64,000 bases of DNA from Escherichia coli (GTDB lineage Bacteria > Pseudomonadota > Gammaproteobacteria > Enterobacterales > Enterobacteriaceae), in NCBI RefSeq assembly GCF_003334405.1, contig NZ_QOWM01000004.1, one strand, 5' to 3'. Below are positions 5,501 through 57,807 of the stretch, in pieces (within the stretch, counting starts at the first letter, position 1; the number at the start of each line of letters is the position of its first letter). The position numbers were made by a program, and so were the translations under genes. The notes under the pieces were generated by a model. It did no database searches. It saw only the letters and a list, made by a program, of their open reading frames with translations, and was not told where the DNA came from.

Positions 5501-7014
5501 GCGATCTCAACGAAAAACTGCGTGAACGTCTGGAACAGGCGGAAGCGGAGCGTACCCGCGCTCGCGAAGCGTTGCGCGGTCACGCAGCGCAGTTGAGTCA
5601 GTACAACCAGGTGCTGGCTTCGCTGAAAAGTTCTTACGACACCAAAAAAGAGCTACTCAACGATCTGCAACGTGAATTGCAGGATATCGGCGTGCGTGCT
5701 GATAGCGGGGCAGAAGAGCGGGCGCGTATTCGCCGTGACGAGCTGCATGCGCAACTGAGCAATAACCGTTCACGCCGCAATCAACTGGAAAAAGCGCTTA
5801 CCTTCTGCGAAGCGGAGATGGACAACCTGACCCGCAAACTGCGCAAGCTGGAGCGGGATTACTTTGAGATGCGCGAGCAGGTAGTGACCGCCAAAGCGGG
5901 CTGGTGTGCGGTGATGCGCATGGTGAAAGATAACGGCGTTGAGCGCCGCTTACACCGTCGTGAGCTGGCTTATCTCTCCGCTGATGATTTGCGTTCCATG
6001 TCGGATAAGGCGTTAGGTGCGCTGCGTCTGGCGGTGGCGGATAACGAACATCTGCGCGACGTGCTGCGCATGTCGGAAGATCCGAAACGTCCGGAGCGTA
6101 AAATTCAGTTCTTCGTGGCGGTTTATCAGCATCTGCGTGAACGTATTCGTCAGGATATTATTCGTACCGATGATCCGGTGGAAGCTATCGAACAGATGGA
6201 GATTGAACTTAGCCGTCTGACCGAAGAATTAACCTCCCGTGAACAGAAACTGGCGATCAGTTCCCGCAGCGTGGCGAACATCATTCGCAAAACCATTCAG
6301 CGCGAGCAGAACCGTATCCGTATGCTCAACCAGGGGTTGCAGAACGTATCGTTTGGTCAGGTGAACAGCGTGCGTCTCAACGTGAACGTGCGTGAAACGC
6401 ACGCCATGCTACTGGATGTGCTCTCTGAACAGCACGAGCAGCATCAGGATCTGTTTAACAGCAACCGTTTGACCTTCTCGGAAGCGCTGGCGAAACTGTA
6501 TCAACGTCTTAACCCGCAGATTGATATGGGGCAGCGCACGCCGCAGACCATCGGTGAAGAACTGCTGGATTACCGCAACTATCTGGAAATGGAAGTTGAG
6601 GTTAACCGTGGTTCCGATGGCTGGCTGCGCGCAGAGTCTGGTGCATTGTCGACCGGTGAGGCGATTGGTACCGGTATGTCGATTCTGGTGATGGTGGTAC
6701 AAAGCTGGGAAGATGAATCTCGCCGCCTGCGCGGTAAAGATATCTCTCCTTGCCGCCTGCTGTTCCTCGATGAAGCAGCGCGACTGGATGCTCGTTCTAT
6801 CGCCACGCTGTTTGAATTGTGTGAGCGTTTGCAAATGCAACTCATCATCGCAGCGCCGGAAAATATCAGCCCGGAGAAAGGCACCACCTATAAACTGGTG
6901 CGTAAAGTCTTCCAGAATACCGAACACGTTCATGTCGTCGGCCTGCGAGGATTTGCGCCGCAACTCCCTGAAACGCTTCCAGGAACTGACGAAGCGCCTT
7001 CTCAGGCGAGTTAA
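2554..7014 (+). CDS. mukB: Chromosome partition protein MukB (SMC-like condensin ATPase)
   Basis: 1486-aa ORF; N-terminal Walker [10 protein letters not shown]; long charged coiled-coil middle; ATG overlaps mukE stop (TAATG). Confidence 0.97.
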
Positions 7015-7020
7015 AATTAA

Positions 7021-7049
7021 GGCGGCAGCAATGCCGCCTTTTCTTTTTC
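7021..7049 (+). terminator. Intrinsic terminator after mukB
   Basis: GC hairpin ggcggcagcaatgccgcc followed by ttttctttttc, 7 nt after mukB stop. Confidence 0.8.
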
Positions 7050-7274
7050 CGAAAACTCCGTTTCTGCACTAAAAAAGTGGCACATTACGGCGCGCTTTTC
7101 TTTAAACTTCTTTACATTAGGTTATGTAAAAACGTATCGGCGTTTATATACTGAAGATAAGCCTGATGAGTAACAGGCTTGCTCGTCATACTTTCGTGAG
7201 TATTGGCGTTGTACAGGCAAGTCGTAAAATAACAGCCTGGCTATTCAGAGTATGATAAAAACAGGGGGCAAGGG

Positions 7275-9122
7275 ATGTTGCTTAATATGATGTGTGGTCG
7301 TCGGCTGTCGGCAATCAGTTTGTGCCTGGCCGTAACATTCGCTCCACTGTTCAATGCGCAGGCCGATGAGCCTGAAGTAATCCCTGGCGACAGCCCGGTG
7401 GCTGTCAGTGAACAGGGCGAGGCACTGCCGCAGGCGCAAGCCACGGCAATAATGGCGGGGATCCAGCCATTGCCTGAAGGTGCGGCAGAAAAAGCCCGCA
7501 CGCAAATCGAATCTCAATTACCCGCAGGTTACAAGCCGGTTTATCTTAACCAGCTTCAACTGTTGTATGCCGCACGCGATATGCAACCCATGTGGGAAAA
7601 CCGTGATGCTGTTAAAGCCTTCCAGCAACAGCTGGCAGAGGTGGCGATTGCCGGTTTCCAGCCGCAGTTTAATAAATGGGTAGAGTTACTGACCGATCCT
7701 GGTGTTAACGGGATGGCACGCGACGTGGTGCTCTCTGATGCGATGATGGGCTATCTCCATTTCATTGCAAATATTCCGGTCAAAGGCACTCGCTGGCTAT
7801 ATAGCAGTAAACCTTATGCACTTGCAACGCCGCCGCTCTCGGTGATTAACCAATGGCAGCTGGCGCTGGATAAAGGTCAATTGCCTACGTTTGTTGCAGG
7901 ACTGGCACCGCAGCATCCGCAATATGCGGCGATGCATGAATCGTTACTGGCCTTACTCTGTGACACCAAACCGTGGCCCCAACTGACCGGCAAAGCAACG
8001 TTGCGCCCAGGGCAGTGGAGTAACGACGTACCGGCGTTGCGCGAAATATTGCAACGCACAGGCATGTTGGACGGGGGGCCGAAAATTACTCTACCTGGCG
8101 ATGACACGCCAACTGACGCGGTAGTCAGCCCATCCGCTGTTACTGTTGAAACAGCAGAAACTAAGCCGATGGATAAGCAAACGACGTCTCGTAGTAAACC
8201 TGCGCCTGCCGTTCGCGCCGCCTACGATAATGAACTGGTGGAAGCCGTTAAACGTTTTCAGGCATGGCAAGGATTGGGGGCAGATGGTGCTATTGGCCCG
8301 GCAACACGTGACTGGTTAAACGTAACGCCCGCCCAGCGTGCTGGCGTGTTGGCTCTCAACATCCAGCGATTGCGCTTGCTGCCAACAGAGCTTTCTACCG
8401 GGATCATGGTTAACATTCCGGCCTATTCGCTGGTCTACTATCAGAACGGCAATCAGGTGCTGGATTCGCGAGTCATTGTCGGTCGCCCCGATCGCAAAAC
8501 GCCGATGATGAGCAGTGCCCTTAACAACGTAGTGGTAAACCCGCCGTGGAACGTACCTCCAACTCTGGCACGCAAAGATATTCTGCCAAAAGTGCGCAAC
8601 GATCCGGGATATCTCGAAAGCCATGGCTATACGGTGATGCGCGGCTGGAACAGCAGAGAAGCGATTGACCCATGGCAGGTTGACTGGTCTACAATCACGG
8701 CCTCGAATTTACCGTTCCGCTTCCAGCAGGCTCCAGGCCCACGGAACTCGCTGGGGCGCTATAAATTCAATATGCCGAGTTCAGAGGCCATTTATTTGCA
8801 TGACACGCCGAACCACAATCTGTTCAAGCGTGATACACGCGCATTGAGCTCAGGCTGTGTACGAGTGAATAAAGCTTCCGATCTGGCGAATATGCTGTTG
8901 CAGGATGCAGGCTGGAATGACAAACGTATTTCTGATGCGCTGAAGCAGGGTGATACACGTTACGTCAATATTCGGCAGTCGATTCCGGTGAATCTCTACT
9001 ACCTGACGGCCTTTGTTGGTGCAGATGGTCGTACCCAGTATCGTACAGATATTTACAATTATGATCTGCCTGCGCGATCCAGCTCGCAAATCGTATCGAA
9101 AGCGGAACAATTAATCAGGTAA
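7275..9122 (+). CDS. ldtD: L,D-transpeptidase LdtD (YcbB)
   Basis: 615-aa ORF with N-terminal signal peptide; recognised as YcbB/LdtD. Confidence 0.93.
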
Positions 9123-9302
9123 ATGAAGTAGTTCGGGGAAATCAGTTGTCGTAATAATTAGCATGATTGGGGGCGATTCTCTGCAGCCCCCGTCACTGCT
9201 GGGGTTGAGTCATCTTGACGTCTGCTTTACGGGCGGTTAAGGTGCCTCTTGTGCGCCAGAAGTGCATATAAACGATAACATTGACCTGTAGACTTGATTA
9301 TC

Positions 9303-9851
9303 ATGGACAAATTCGACGCTAATCGCCGCAAATTGCTGGCGCTTGGTGGCGTTGCACTCGGTGCCGCCATCCTGCCGACCCCTGCGTTTGCAACACTCTC
9401 TACCCCACGCCCGCGCATTTTGACACTCAATAATCTTCATACCGGAGAGTCAATCAAAGCGGAGTTTTTCGATGGCAGAGGCTATATTCAGGAAGAATTG
9501 GCAAAACTTAACCATTTTTTCCGCGATTACCGCGCGAACAAAATAAAGTCCATCGACCCAGGATTATTCGACCAGTTGTATCGCCTGCAAGGGTTGTTAG
9601 GCACGCGCAAACCGGTGCAACTCATTTCCGGTTATCGTTCTATTGATACCAACAATGAACTACGCGCCCGCAGCCGTGGAGTAGCGAAGAAAAGCTATCA
9701 CACTAAAGGCCAGGCGATGGATTTCCATATTGAAGGTATCGCGTTAAGCAATATTCGCAAAGCCGCGTTATCTATGCGCGCAGGTGGTGTAGGATATTAT
9801 CCACGTAGTAACTTTGTGCATATTGATACCGGGCCAGCACGGCACTGGTAG
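9303..9851 (+). CDS. mepK: Peptidoglycan L,D-endopeptidase MepK (YcbK), Tat-type signal peptide
   Basis: 182-aa product from ATG 9303 (MDKFDANRRKLLALGGVALGAA...); twin-arginine motif RRKLL; track ORF starts 9 nt earlier at TTG. Confidence 0.9.
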   Translation: MDKFDANRRKLLALGGVALGAAILPTPAFATLSTPRPRILTLNNLHTGESIKAEFFDGRGYIQEELAKLNHFFRDYRANKIKSIDPGLFDQLYRLQGLLGTRKPVQLISGYRSIDTNNELRARSRGVAKKSYHTKGQAMDFHIEGIALSNIRKAALSMRAGGVGYYPRSNFVHIDTGPARHW

Positions 9852-9877
9852 TAATTGCTTAACGAAACAGGGGCAGT

Positions 9878-10525
9878 ATGAACTATCGTATTATTCCGGT
9901 CACCGCATTCTCCCAGAACTGTTCATTAATCTGGTGTGAACAAACCCGTCTGGCCGCACTGGTCGATCCTGGCGGCGATGCGGAAAAAATCAAACAGGAA
10001 GTTGATGACAGCGGCCTGACACTGATGCAGATCCTGCTGACGCATGGTCATCTGGACCACGTTGGCGCAGCGGCGGAACTGGCGCAACATTACGGCGTGC
10101 CGGTTTTCGGCCCGGAAAAAGAAGATGAGTTCTGGCTGCAAGGCTTGCCTGCGCAAAGTCGTATGTTTGGTCTGGAAGAGTGCCAGCCGCTGACGCCAGA
10201 TCGTTGGCTGAACGAAGGCGATACCATCAGCATAGGGAATGTGACTTTACAGGTGTTACATTGCCCTGGGCATACGCCGGGTCATGTCGTGTTTTTTGAT
10301 GATCGGGCAAAGCTGCTGATTTCTGGCGATGTTATTTTCAAAGGCGGAGTAGGGCGCAGTGACTTCCCGCGTGGCGATCATAATCAACTGATTTCTTCAA
10401 TCAAAGATAAATTGCTGCCACTGGGGGATGACGTGATATTTATTCCGGGTCACGGACCATTATCCACACTTGGTTATGAACGCCTGCATAATCCCTTCCT
10501 GCAAGACGAAATGCCCGTCTGGTAA
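9878..10525 (+). CDS. gloC: Metallo-beta-lactamase fold hydrolase (glyoxalase II-like) GloC/YcbL
   Basis: 215-aa ORF with THGHLDH metal-binding motif; position matches ycbL. Confidence 0.9.
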
Positions 10526-10531
10526 GGCACA

Positions 10532-10557
10532 TAAAAAAGCCCGCTTTTAATGCGGGC
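10532..10557 (-). terminator. Candidate intrinsic terminator read on minus strand (distal end of aspC transcript)
   Basis: Hairpin gcccgc-ttttaat-gcgggc preceded on plus strand by an A-run, which is a T-run on the minus strand. Confidence 0.4.
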
Positions 10558-10587
10558 CTGGATTTCTGGCAAAGTGCGCTTTGTTTA

Positions 10588-10687
10588 TGCCGGATGCGGC
10601 ACGAGCGCCTTATCCGGCCTACAAAATCGTGCAAATTCAAAATATTGCAGGGGACGCGTAGGCCTGATAAGCGTAGCGCATCAGGCA
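10588..10687. repeat. REP pair (BIME-like) in gloC-aspC intergenic region
   Basis: tgccggatgcggcacgagcgccttatccggcctac and inverted copy gtaggcctgataagcgtagcgcatcaggca; classic REP consensus. Confidence 0.85.
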
Positions 10688-10710
10688 ATGTTGCGTTTGT
10701 CATCAGTCTC

Positions 10711-10741
10711 AGCCCGCTTTTCAGCGGGCTTCATTGTTTTT
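10711..10741 (+). terminator. Candidate intrinsic terminator for gloC transcript
   Basis: Hairpin agcccgc-ttttca-gcgggct followed by tcattgttttt. Confidence 0.5.
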
Positions 10742-10746
10742 AATGC

Positions 10747-11937
10747 TTACAGCACTGCCACAATCGCTTCGCACAGCGGAGCCATGTTATCTGGTGTCAT
10801 CCCGGCCACATTTACGCGACCAGAAGCAACCGCATATACGCCAAACTCTTCGCGCAGACGCAGCACTTGTTCTTTTGTCAGGCCACTGAAGGAGAACATG
10901 CCGTTCTGTTTGATGATAAAGCTGAAGTCGCGGTTTGCGCCTTTTTCCTGCAGCGTATTGACGAACAACTGACGCATACGCTGAATACGCTGGCGCATAT
11001 CAGTCAGCTCTTGTTCCCAAATCGCACGTAACGCATCGTTGCTCAGGATGGTGGCAACAACAGAAGCGCCGTGTGCTGGTGGGTTAGAGTAGTTAGCGCG
11101 AATCGCCGCTTTCATTTGGCTGAATGCGCGATCAACGGTTTCACTGTCGGCAGCAACCAGAGTACAAGCGCCAACACGCTCGTTGTACAGGCCAAAGTTT
11201 TTAGAGTAGGAACTGGCAACAATCAGCTCTTTATGCATAGCCGCGAAAGCGCGCAGTCCTTCAGCATCTTCTTCCAGACCACGGGCAAAACCCTGGTAAG
11301 CGAAGTCAAACAGCGGTAACCAGCCTTTCTCAACGGAGAGTTGTGCCAGTGTTTGCCATTGTTCCAGCGTAGGGTCGATACCGGTTGGGTTATGGCAGCA
11401 GCCATGGAACAGCACTACGTCGCCAGCCTGAGCTTCATTCAGGCTGTTAATCAGTGCATCGAAGTCAAGAGTGTGATTTTCCGCATCATAATAAGCGTAT
11501 TCACGAACTTCCAGACCTGCAGAGTTAAAGACGCTCTTATGGTTCGGCCAGCTTGGGTTGCTCACCCACACACGCTTAACGCTGGTATTTTTTGCCAGGA
11601 AATCGGCAGCCACGCGTAGTGCGCCAGTGCCCCCCGGAGTCTGTGCCGTGCGAGCACGTTTGTCATTGATCAGGGCGCTACCTTTACCAAACAGCAGTTC
11701 CTGAGTGCAGCGACCAAATTCAGGGATGCCGTCAATGCCGAGGTAATTTTTGGTGGTTTCATTTTCGAGCAGATACTGTTCAGCCTTTTTCACGCTGGTC
11801 AGTACCGGGGTTTTGCCCGTCTCATCTTTATAGACACCAATCCCGAGGTTAATTTTGCCGGGACGTTCATCGGCACGAAACAGATCGGCCAGGCCCAGAA
11901 TCGGGTCGGCAGGAGCGGCGGTAATGTTCTCAAACAT
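10747..11937 (-). CDS. aspC: Aspartate aminotransferase
   Basis: 396-aa ORF recognised as AspC ([16 protein letters not shown]...); PLP-dependent aminotransferase. Confidence 0.97.
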
Positions 11938-57646: not shown

Positions 57647-57807
57647 TGAGTCACTCTCTATGACAGATGTAATTAATTAAGCAGCATAATGATAATGCGT
57701 AAGGGCACCCAGAAGTTTTACCCATCTTTACGCATTTGATCTGGAACAGGTTTAACAGCGGATTATCAGGTCATTAAGCAAATATAACGCCCTGAGAATT
57801 TCGACAG

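Follow-up and report, generated by a model that had tools for sequence, protein, structure and literature searches.

The window, a stretch of 64,000 nt, is Escherichia coli chromosome, and it carries three neighbouring plus-strand genes that encode two enzymes of peptidoglycan cross-linking and GloC. The genes, the spacer between the first two and the hairpin at the downstream end are the following:

7275-9122, plus strand: ldtD (ycbB), encoding an L,D-transpeptidase of 615 aa (ATG open reading frame, RefSeq annotation).
9123-9302, plus strand: ldtD-mepK spacer of exactly 180 nt; its length is conserved in Enterobacterales, with a median of 182 nt.
9303-9851, plus strand: mepK (ycbK), encoding an M15-family peptidoglycan L,D-endopeptidase of 182 aa; its annotated start codon is the ATG at 9303.
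9878-10525, plus strand: gloC (ycbL), separated from mepK by a 26-nt gap and co-transcribed with it (operon b0926-b0927).
10711-10730, plus strand: terminator-like hairpin closing the mepK-gloC unit, found in a terminator scan.

The ldtD-mepK region matches many E. coli genomes with 100% DNA identity and is present in 5,426 of 5,426 complete E. coli genomes, and a comparison with MG1655 (NC_000913.3 980700-984500) shows three mismatches in 3,801 nt and no indels. Genes, order, spacing and protein sequences are all shared with K-12 ldtD (ycbB, b0925), mepK (ycbK, b0926) and gloC (ycbL, b0927), and these three SNPs leave no substantive difference in the compared stretch; the strain is either a non-K-12 one or related to K-12. 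By sequence comparison, the locus is ldtD-mepK-gloC of the E. coli K-12 type, and the gene identities can be taken as secure. The identities and same-strand adjacency proposed in the first-pass annotation agree with the open reading frames, the NCBIfam scores and the E. coli identity, and its 180-bp spacer is accurate to the nucleotide. A mechanical list of open reading frames starts mepK at an upstream TTG, at 9294. An Rfam scan of 6900-10800 (E up to 1) gave no match in ldtD, the spacer or mepK; REP-related matches beyond gloC were the only ones in that interval.

Among the best 80 loci from a search with a 10-sequence alignment, all of them from Enterobacterales, the order mukB-ldtD-mepK-gloC is kept in each of the 78 with enough flank, and the mepK-gloC gap in these relatives has a median of 39 nt. 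An alignment of 60 MepK sequences was too diverse as a query for this search, and distant lineages were sampled one by one, with ten representatives. In four of these ten, a YcbB-type L,D-transpeptidase (LDT) gene lies immediately upstream of mepK, including one pair with a 35-nt gap (L092) and one with an 8-nt overlap (L095), and the remaining six MepK homologues have no adjoining LDT. These counts bear on a reading in which the adjacency is inherited synteny without regulatory meaning, the hairpin after ldtD an efficient terminator and read-through rare noise: the six homologues without a neighbouring LDT are in keeping with it, and recurrence of the pair in the other four lineages, once with overlapping genes, speaks against it. 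Among the papers covered by the literature search, none names both ycbK and ycbB.

The two enzymes and the export of MepK

LdtD scores 1201 bits against the NCBIfam equivalog NF007891 (cut-off 425) and contains the Pfam domains YkuD (7.7e-26), Scaffold (2.6e-17) and PG_binding_1 (3.4e-07). Its catalytic Cys528 lies in SSGCVRV, an instance of SxGC(I/V)R, with the His-containing YLHDTPNH upstream, and the crystallised YcbB in PDB 6NTW matches residues 31-615 with E=0. Formation of 3-3 (mDAP-mDAP) cross-links has been published for the identical K-12 protein. MepK, in turn, reaches 274.9 bits against NF053624 (cut-off 185) and 3.3e-61 against Pfam Peptidase_M15_2 (DUF882, PF05951), and its zinc ligands H133, D140 and H173 are present and invariant in an alignment of 60 homologues with 40-66% identity. 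The search for solved structures related to MepK by sequence gave a single, spurious match. Long proteins with a MepK domain (480-730 aa) were considered as LdtD-like fusions, and this was rejected, as phmmer with LdtD found no similarity and Pfam shows the M15 domain only.

According to bioRxiv 10.1101/2021.02.12.430937, MepK with the H133A substitution is inactive in vivo; the same work cites Chodisetti and Reddy 2019 for the preference of MepK for 3-3 cross-links and for the lethality of YcbB production without MepK. Voedts et al. describe a dual specificity in which 3-3 cross-links are preferred. The link between a synthase of 3-3 cross-links and the hydrolase that cleaves them, which had been drawn from published work, is correct.

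The export signal of MepK lies in its N-terminal segment:

9303-9392, plus strand: Tat-type signal peptide of MepK, MDKFDANRRKLLALGGVALGAAILPTPAFA, with an RR motif and an AFA cleavage motif.

Residues 7-30 are NRRKLLALGGVALGAAILPTPAFA, and the two Arg codons, CGC CGC, occupy 9324-9329. Both R8 and R9 are invariant in the 60-sequence alignment (40-66% identity), which bears out the twin-arginine, Tat-type signal of the first-pass annotation. The RR context, A-N-R-R-K-L-L-A, resembles (S/T)-R-R-x-F-L-K, although N-R-R-K-L-L departs from the textbook Tat motif S/T-R-R-x-F-L-K. In the family, RR and a hydrophobic stretch occur in 105 of 114 short-form representatives, with the consensus (S/T/N)-R-R-x-(F/L)-L, and among these 105 members Asn is the third commonest residue at -1 and Leu the second commonest at +3. 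Long-form representatives carry RR and a hydrophobic stretch in only 5 of 28 cases. The h-region of MepK, LLALGGVALGAAILPTP, averages 1.75 in Kyte-Doolittle hydropathy and is followed by A-F-A and then T. The generic Tat-signal HMMs TIGR01409 and PF10518 did not match MepK (Pfam; NCBIfam at E up to 10). Short Tat-signal HMMs miss many true substrates, and this negative carries little weight. Reporter tests of signal peptides were reportedly made by Tullman-Ercek and co-workers in 2007.

Work on ExPEC and on Salmonella counts MepK among the Tat substrates (PMC7549933, PMC8262268), and for Salmonella it is regarded as a verified one. In the Salmonella constructs the mature protein begins at residue 31, and Sec-targeted MepK did not complement a tatABC mutant (PMC7549933/PMC8262268), whereas Sec-targeted AmiA, AmiC and SufI did. 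These Tat-exported proteins of E. coli and Salmonella (AmiA, AmiC and SufI/FtsP) share with MepK an RR signal peptide and action at the envelope, and MepK is set apart from them as a zinc enzyme. MepK reaches the periplasm via Tat with a cleavable RR signal peptide, as already published.

Organisation of the ldtD-mepK spacer

As a whole, the spacer has an RNA fold z-score of -3.94. Within it, five features can be placed:

9159-9201, plus strand: terminator-like stem-loop after ldtD, with a G/C core at 9169-9191.
9215-9220, plus strand: mepK promoter -35, TTGACG, a conserved block in the spacer alignment.
9238-9243, plus strand: mepK promoter -10, TAAGGT, conserved and 17 bp after the -35.
9251-9302, plus strand: mepK 5' UTR of 52 nt, with a 5'-terminal hairpin at 9251-9267 (-6.3 kcal/mol).
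9281-9286, plus strand: TTGACC, the '-35-like element' of the first-pass annotation, ending 16 nt short of the mepK ATG (9303).

The stem-loop pairs GGGGGC (9169-9174) with GCCCCC (9186-9191) in a core of -12.3 kcal/mol, and its extended form, 9159-9201, reaches -21.2 kcal/mol; the hairpin suspected around 9165-9190 is therefore confirmed in its core, with support from covariation. The arms of the hairpin vary in sequence and register among relatives, so that RNAalifold on a MAFFT alignment of the region produced no meaningful consensus, and the structure was assessed by per-sequence searches against shuffles and by pair counting for the named structure. Relatives have a hairpin just upstream of the -35 with a median of -18.2 kcal/mol, against -11.3 in shuffles, and it is more stable than its own shuffle median in 61 of 66 spacers. 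In the pair counting, paired cells made up 71.6%, against 61.4±2.0, with a score of 0.309 against 0.168; none of 500 shuffles scored as high, and the position was the best in the slide control.

What follows the stem differs between E. coli and some of its relatives. In E. coli the U-tract is degenerate (GTCACTGC, two T in 8), whereas several relatives, among them L019, L046, L058 and L070, have five to six T in 8, and the generic terminator scan did not call the E. coli hairpin at 9159-9201. Since the U-run is lacking in E. coli and present in relatives, the E. coli structure is best called terminator-like or weakened, and from its sequence it looks like an ldtD terminator that would be partial in this species. 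A stable hairpin of -21 kcal/mol is what the mere inheritance of gene order, with efficient termination after ldtD, would predict, but a hairpin without a U-tract is not. A competing hairpin at 9185-9207 uses the conserved CTGGGG.

Downstream of the hairpin lies TTGAC(G/T)-17 bp-TA..GT, the only block in the alignment of 61 spacers whose conservation is 90% or higher over all families. TTGAC(G/T) with TAnnnT 16-18 bp downstream occurs in 66 of 77 Enterobacterales spacers, and the spacing is exactly 17 bp in 65 of these 66. The -10, TAAGGT, agrees with the consensus in only three of six positions, among them the key T1, A2 and T6. A published start of operon b0926-b0927 (SMRT-Cappable-seq TSS 983022) corresponds to window position 9250, 7-8 nt past TAAGGT, and the G at 9251 is likely the mepK +1. 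The features of a sigma-70 promoter, namely a spacing of 17±1 bp, conservation and a start 6-8 nt past the -10, are thus found together at 9215-9243. In the 5' UTR, 9251-9302, no obvious Shine-Dalgarno sequence was seen; the arms of its hairpin, GTGCGC and GTGCAT, show conservation but no covariation in the 61-sequence alignment.

The mepK promoter is therefore about 65 bases upstream of the TTGACC first proposed. That hexamer is indeed present and matches TTGACA at five of six positions, and a generic scan called an overlapping ATAACA-18-TATCAT at 9275-9304; both would suit a model of two fully separate units in which TTGACC is the mepK -35. However, since 16 nt separate the end of TTGACC from the ATG, the -10 would sit on the ATG and the start within the coding sequence, so that it cannot be the mepK -35, and SMRT-Cappable-seq has no published start between the hexamer and the mepK ATG. 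Its conservation, as T(G/T)AC(C/T), is limited to Enterobacteriaceae, whereas the upstream promoter is conserved beyond them, and the generic promoter scan is no richer than shuffled sequence (5 sites against 4.6 expected). With a read-through transcript on record as well, this model is hardly credible.

Transcription units and the coupling of mepK to ldtD

Published starts were placed by subtracting an offset of 973,772 from the genome coordinate, and the start-site evidence comes from one dataset (SMRT-Cappable-seq); the 2016 Cappable-seq data gave no matching coordinates. Besides the start at 9250/9251, the following features are relevant to transcription:

7101-7115, minus strand: CpxR-box-like site GTAAAGAAGTTTAAA upstream of ldtD, found by pattern search (GTAAA-N5-GTAAA, one mismatch).
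7147-7152, plus strand: ldtD promoter -10, TATACT, conserved as TATAcT in the upstream alignment.
9159-9160, plus strand: second published mepK-gloC start (NC_000913.3 982931; SMRT-Cappable-seq), at the foot of the hairpin.
9802-9803, plus strand: gloC-only start (TSS 983574, 28 reads, TTS 984506), inside the 3' end of mepK.

The published ldtD starts (SMRT-Cappable-seq 980897 and 980930) fall at 7125/7126 and 7158/7159, and the centre of the CpxR-box-like site is about 50 nt upstream of the latter. In 33 upstream regions from Enterobacteriaceae, the block CTTTAAaCTTCTTTACA at this site shows conservation of 90% or more, and ldtD is included in the CpxR regulon list, from which mepK is absent. 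For the start at 9159/9160 no convincing sigma-70 motif was found at normal spacing; nearby, the block TTGTCGTAA (9146-9154) is conserved in Enterobacteriaceae.

The SMRT-Cappable-seq transcripts fall into four classes, b0925, b0925-b0926-b0927, b0926-b0927 and b0927, and the read-through class b0925-b0926-b0927 begins at the ldtD start site. A simple ldtD-mepK operon, served by the ldtD promoter only and with no promoter in the spacer, would account for this read-through, for the shared strand and conserved order, and for the near-abutting or overlapping genes of some distant relatives (L092, L095). Such an operon has one promoter and no internal starts, yet starts are published at 9159/9160, 9250/9251 and 9802/9803, the two capped 5' ends within the spacer yielding b0926-b0927 transcripts. 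The -35/-10 pair with its fixed 17-bp spacing in 66 of 77 spacers, a spacer that stays at about 180 nt instead of collapsing, and RegulonDB, which lists the ldtD and mepK units separately (per the SMRT-Cappable-seq table), also stand against it, so that the simple operon is very improbable and in effect already refuted by the start-site data.

The ldtD and mepK-gloC units overlap, and a promoter of their own for mepK-gloC coexists with read-through from ldtD. The earlier proposal of separate promoters rather than one operon consequently stands as regards a mepK promoter within the spacer, but not as regards exclusive separation, given the published b0925-b0926-b0927 transcript; a co-transcript of the kind that the proposal had itself named as contrary evidence has been reported (SMRT-Cappable-seq). 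The SMRT-Cappable-seq catalogue contains other overlapping units with an internal promoter and a leaky terminator, which give the same three kinds of transcript. The ldtD-mepK pair differs from them in pairing a synthase with the hydrolase that cleaves what it makes, and in a hairpin/-35/-10 module of near-constant length across several Enterobacterales families.

Taken together, the spacer of this K-12-type locus very probably consists of a terminator-like stem-loop, a sigma-70 promoter for mepK-gloC and a 52-nt leader, with read-through from ldtD besides. As published, LdtD, of the YcbB type, makes the 3-3 links that MepK, a zinc M15 enzyme, preferentially cuts. The first part of the spacer, the stem-loop, would act as the ldtD terminator, presumably a weak one in E. 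coli because its U-tract is degenerate; the second is the promoter, its -35 at 9215-9220 and its -10 at 9238-9243, with transcription starting at about 9251 (+1); and the third is the 52-nt leader. In this arrangement mepK is expressed from its own promoter and also by read-through from the Cpx-responsive ldtD promoter, and such read-through may raise MepK upon LdtD induction, which would fit the lethality of YcbB without MepK.

Coupling of mepK to ldtD by read-through may be quantitatively minor, since the CpxR regulon list does not include mepK. This absence, together with the reported ldtD-only transcripts, is also consistent with the reading of the adjacency as synteny devoid of regulatory meaning; the read-through class, however, passed its authors' operon-calling criteria, and the dependence of YcbB-producing cells on MepK offers a selective reason for the linkage, which leaves that reading unlikely. 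At the other extreme, the spacer might be a tuned coupling device in which the hydrolase tracks the synthase, a tentative and rather doubtful suggestion. A constitutive mepK promoter would then guarantee a minimum of 3-3 endopeptidase, an ldtD terminator that is leaky by design, with a U-tract worn down in Escherichia, would let a constant share of the Cpx-induced ldtD transcription through into mepK, and the competing hairpin at 9185-9207 might modulate the leak.

Published work already covers the genes and their enzymology, the genetic dependence, the export by Tat and also the transcript classes, and for the checks suggested in the first-pass annotation, on Tat dependence and on operon structure, most of the work has been carried out and published. 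The finding itself changes nothing known; its modest added value lies in a precise map of the spacer, supported by conservation, that places a terminator-like hairpin, a promoter and a leader, corrects the promoter call and supplies clean targets for mutagenesis. The 3-3 cross-linking by LdtD bypasses the penicillin-binding proteins and leads to resistance to most beta-lactams, and since this route needs MepK, a tie between mepK and ldtD expression is of some practical interest.

At the far end of the locus, the published TTS 984506 corresponds to window position 10734, near the 10711-10730 hairpin.

Locus and transcripts

The ldtD-mepK region belongs to the E. coli chromosome. A search with 3.6 kb of sequence around the two genes gave matches in each of the 5,426 complete E. 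coli genomes, in many cases at 100% identity (5,526 matching places, four of them on plasmids; in four genomes no place covers 80% or more of the query), and the region differs from K-12 MG1655 (NC_000913.3 980700-984500) by three substitutions and no indels, so that MG1655 coordinates equal window coordinates plus a fixed 973,772. In the RefSeq annotation of the identical sequence, mukB, ldtD, mepK and gloC lie on the plus strand and aspC on the minus strand.

Features of the ldtD-mepK region, in window coordinates
7101-7115: CpxR-box-like site, one mismatch to GTAAA-N5-GTAAA (pattern search)
7147-7152: ldtD -10 element, TATACT (upstream alignment)
7275-9122, plus: ldtD (RefSeq)
9123-9302: ldtD-mepK spacer, 180 nt
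9169-9174 and 9186-9191, plus: hairpin arms GGGGGC and GCCCCC (fold)
9215-9220, plus: mepK promoter -35, TTGACG (spacer alignment)
9238-9243, plus: mepK promoter -10, TAAGGT (spacer alignment)
9303-9851, plus: mepK (RefSeq)
9878-10525, plus: gloC (RefSeq)

The spacer length, signal peptide, hairpin and TTGACC hexamer described in the first-pass annotation all lie where it placed them. It reads a well-characterised locus correctly and without novelty, and the tests it proposed have largely been done already; in its interpretation, the -35 call is wrong and the denial of an operon half right.

mepK is transcribed both from its own promoter and together with ldtD. SMRT-Cappable-seq (Supplementary Data 2, PMC6131387, NC_000913.3 coordinates) reports ldtD alone (b0925) from starts at 980897 and 980930 (window 7125 and 7158), mepK-gloC (b0926-b0927) from 982931 and 983022 (9159 and 9250), gloC alone (b0927) from 983574 (9802; 28 reads, end 984506), and an ldtD-mepK-gloC transcript from 980930 (7158), flagged 'novel' there, RegulonDB holding b0925 and b0926-b0927 as separate units. 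Every listed start is a pyrimidine and the base after it a purine, so the listing is probably 0-based, with the true +1 one base on. The suggestion of separate promoters rather than one operon was thus right in spirit, since mepK has its own promoter, and wrong in excluding co-transcription. At 984506 (window 10734) the gloC-only transcript ends where a terminator scan places a terminator-like hairpin (10711-10730). Its start (9802-9803) falls within the 3' part of mepK, 75 nt ahead of the gloC ATG. Between gloC and aspC, 10531-10665 carries REP-type repeats, with an Rfam ES036 (CssrF) match at 10623-10665 (53 bits; gathering score 37.6) and, on the minus strand, a naRNA4 match (10583-10619) that falls below threshold.

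The mepK promoter and the spacer hairpin

Spacer length has a median of 182 nt over 76 loci and is mostly 171-189 nt, a range spanning Enterobacteriaceae, Yersiniaceae, Pectobacteriaceae, Erwiniaceae and Hafniaceae; the mepK-gloC gap in relatives has a median of 39 nt. The single block conserved across all families in 61 aligned spacers is TTGAC, 17 bp, TA(A/T)(G/T)GT. By pattern search these elements occur in 66 of 77 spacers, at exactly 17-bp spacing in 65 of the 66, and the -10 lies 55-66 nt upstream of the ATG in most. The published start at 9250/9251, 7-8 nt past the conserved -10, independently supports this promoter. The TTGACC at 9281-9286, previously proposed as -35-like, is not the mepK -35: it ends 16 nt before the ATG, which would put the -10 on the start codon and the transcription start within mepK; it is kept only in Enterobacteriaceae, within an ATG-abutting block (TGTAGACCTGATTATC), and SMRT-Cappable-seq reports no starts between it and the ATG (PMC6131387).

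Nearly all spacers hold a stable hairpin of variable sequence immediately before the -35. Best hairpins have a median of -18.2 kcal/mol against -11.3 in dinucleotide shuffles, 61 of 66 beating their own shuffle median, and the spacer RNA of E. coli is more stable than its shuffles (z = -3.94). For the named helix of this hairpin, a 24-sequence alignment gives 71.6% of cells paired (61.4±2.0 in shuffles) and a covariation score of 0.309 against 0.168, equalled by none of 500 shuffles and top in a slide control, one pair being GC in 11 sequences and CG in 10. Many relatives flank the stem with an A-run and a T-run, the signature of an intrinsic terminator (for example GAAAACGGGCC...GGCCCGTTTTT in the relative L019); the E. 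coli tail, GTCACTGC, has two T in eight, and the E. coli hairpin was not called by a generic terminator scan.

Upstream of ldtD, the CpxR-box-like site and TATACT are conserved across 33 Enterobacteriaceae. Both are suitably placed for the reported start at 7158/7159, the box centred about 50 nt before it; the read-through transcript begins at this start too. The CpxR regulon list includes ldtD and not mepK; CpxR-like sites number 8 in the whole window against 3.4 expected, a perfect one lying at 57717-57731. In the most economical model, a constitutive mepK-gloC unit would set basal expression, and a partial terminator would pass some Cpx-responsive ldtD transcription into mepK; a purpose for this read-through coupling is something we infer.

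Several smaller features accompany these regions. A second hairpin at 9185-9207 (CAGCCCC/GGGGUUG, -9.6 kcal/mol) is in competition for the 3' arm of the terminator-like stem. Enterobacteriaceae conserve the downstream arm of this second hairpin, CTGGGG; it could be an anti-terminator-like alternative or simply belong to the region upstream of the promoter. The E. coli mepK leader (9251-9302) has no recognisable Shine-Dalgarno; other families carry AGGTAA or GGGTA 8-10 nt ahead of the ATG. At the 5' end of the mepK leader, a hairpin (GUGCGC/GUGCAU) is conserved but shows no covariation. Right after the ldtD stop, 9123-9131 reads ATGAAGTAG (start, Lys, stop), with nucleotides conserved in Enterobacteriaceae; the Serratia and Rahnella counterpart is ATGCAGTAA, and that of Citrobacter opens a 12-codon ORF, which argues for conservation as DNA, not peptide. 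The ldtD 5' UTR (about 116 nt in E. coli) has about 85 extra nt (window ~7170-7255) in Escherichia and Citrobacter relative to Enterobacter, Kosakonia, Cedecea and others.

Conservation of the gene pair

Among the best 80 loci of a scan that took one genome from each species, all Enterobacterales, mukB-ldtD-mepK-gloC is kept in all 78 with sufficient upstream flank, MepK being more conserved (68-98% identity) than LdtD (45-94%). In ten more distant MepK representatives (44-56% identity), a YcbB-type LDT lies directly upstream on the same strand in four, with gaps of 240, 35 and 149 nt (loci L083, L092 and L094) and an 8-nt overlap (L095); the other six have no LDT directly upstream. The pairing is therefore recurrent, short of universal. 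In L092 and L095 the two genes probably form a tight operon, in contrast to Enterobacterales with their ~180-nt spacer module. In the E. coli locus L091 (NZ_CM129861.1), an IS4 insertion, carried by two wastewater strains from Galapagos, separates mukB from ldtD (window ~7015-7100), upstream of the ldtD promoter region.

LdtD, MepK and the Tat signal

LdtD scores 1201 bits against its NCBIfam equivalog (cut-off 425), with Scaffold, PG_binding_1 and YkuD domains and Cys528 in the motif SSGCVRV; residues 31-615 match crystallised YcbB (6NTW). MepK scores 275 bits against the NCBIfam MepK equivalog (cut-off 185) and matches Peptidase_M15_2 at 3e-61, retaining H133, D140 and H173, zinc ligands invariant in a 60-sequence alignment (40-66% identity). 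The functional link put forward for the two enzymes was already published: MepK prefers 3-3 cross-links and YcbB production is lethal in a mepK mutant; where YcbB is the sole transpeptidase, MepM and MepK are together necessary and sufficient (bioRxiv 10.1101/2021.02.12.430937, citing Chodisetti and Reddy 2019).

The proposed Tat-type signal of MepK (MDKFDANRRKLLALGGVALGAAILPTPAFA) is borne out by its homologues and by the literature. A search of 1.84 billion representative proteins shows RR followed by a hydrophobic stretch in 105 of 114 short-form homologues (165-320 aa), with the consensus (S/T/N)-R-R-x-(F/L)-L, into which the E. coli N-R-R-K-L-L falls; R8 and R9 are invariant in the 60-sequence alignment. 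The h-region is moderately hydrophobic (mean hydropathy 1.75) and ends in A-F-A. Generic Tat-signal HMMs gave no match to MepK, a result of little weight because the motif is so short. Published work on both E. coli and Salmonella counts MepK/YcbK among the Tat substrates (PMC7549933, PMC8262268), and Sec-rerouted MepK does not complement, which the study's authors blame on the zinc cofactor (PMC7549933/PMC8262268).

The family also has a long form of 480-730 aa (P0148, P0158, P0162, P0165, P0173 and others), with an N-terminal M15_2 domain and a mostly non-RR, Sec-like leader; its ~450 C-terminal residues match nothing in Pfam and are not similar to LdtD. According to an Hfq RNA-interactome and proteome study, mepK belongs to the regulon of the sRNA SdsR, MepK being up-regulated in an sdsR mutant (PMC10954441).
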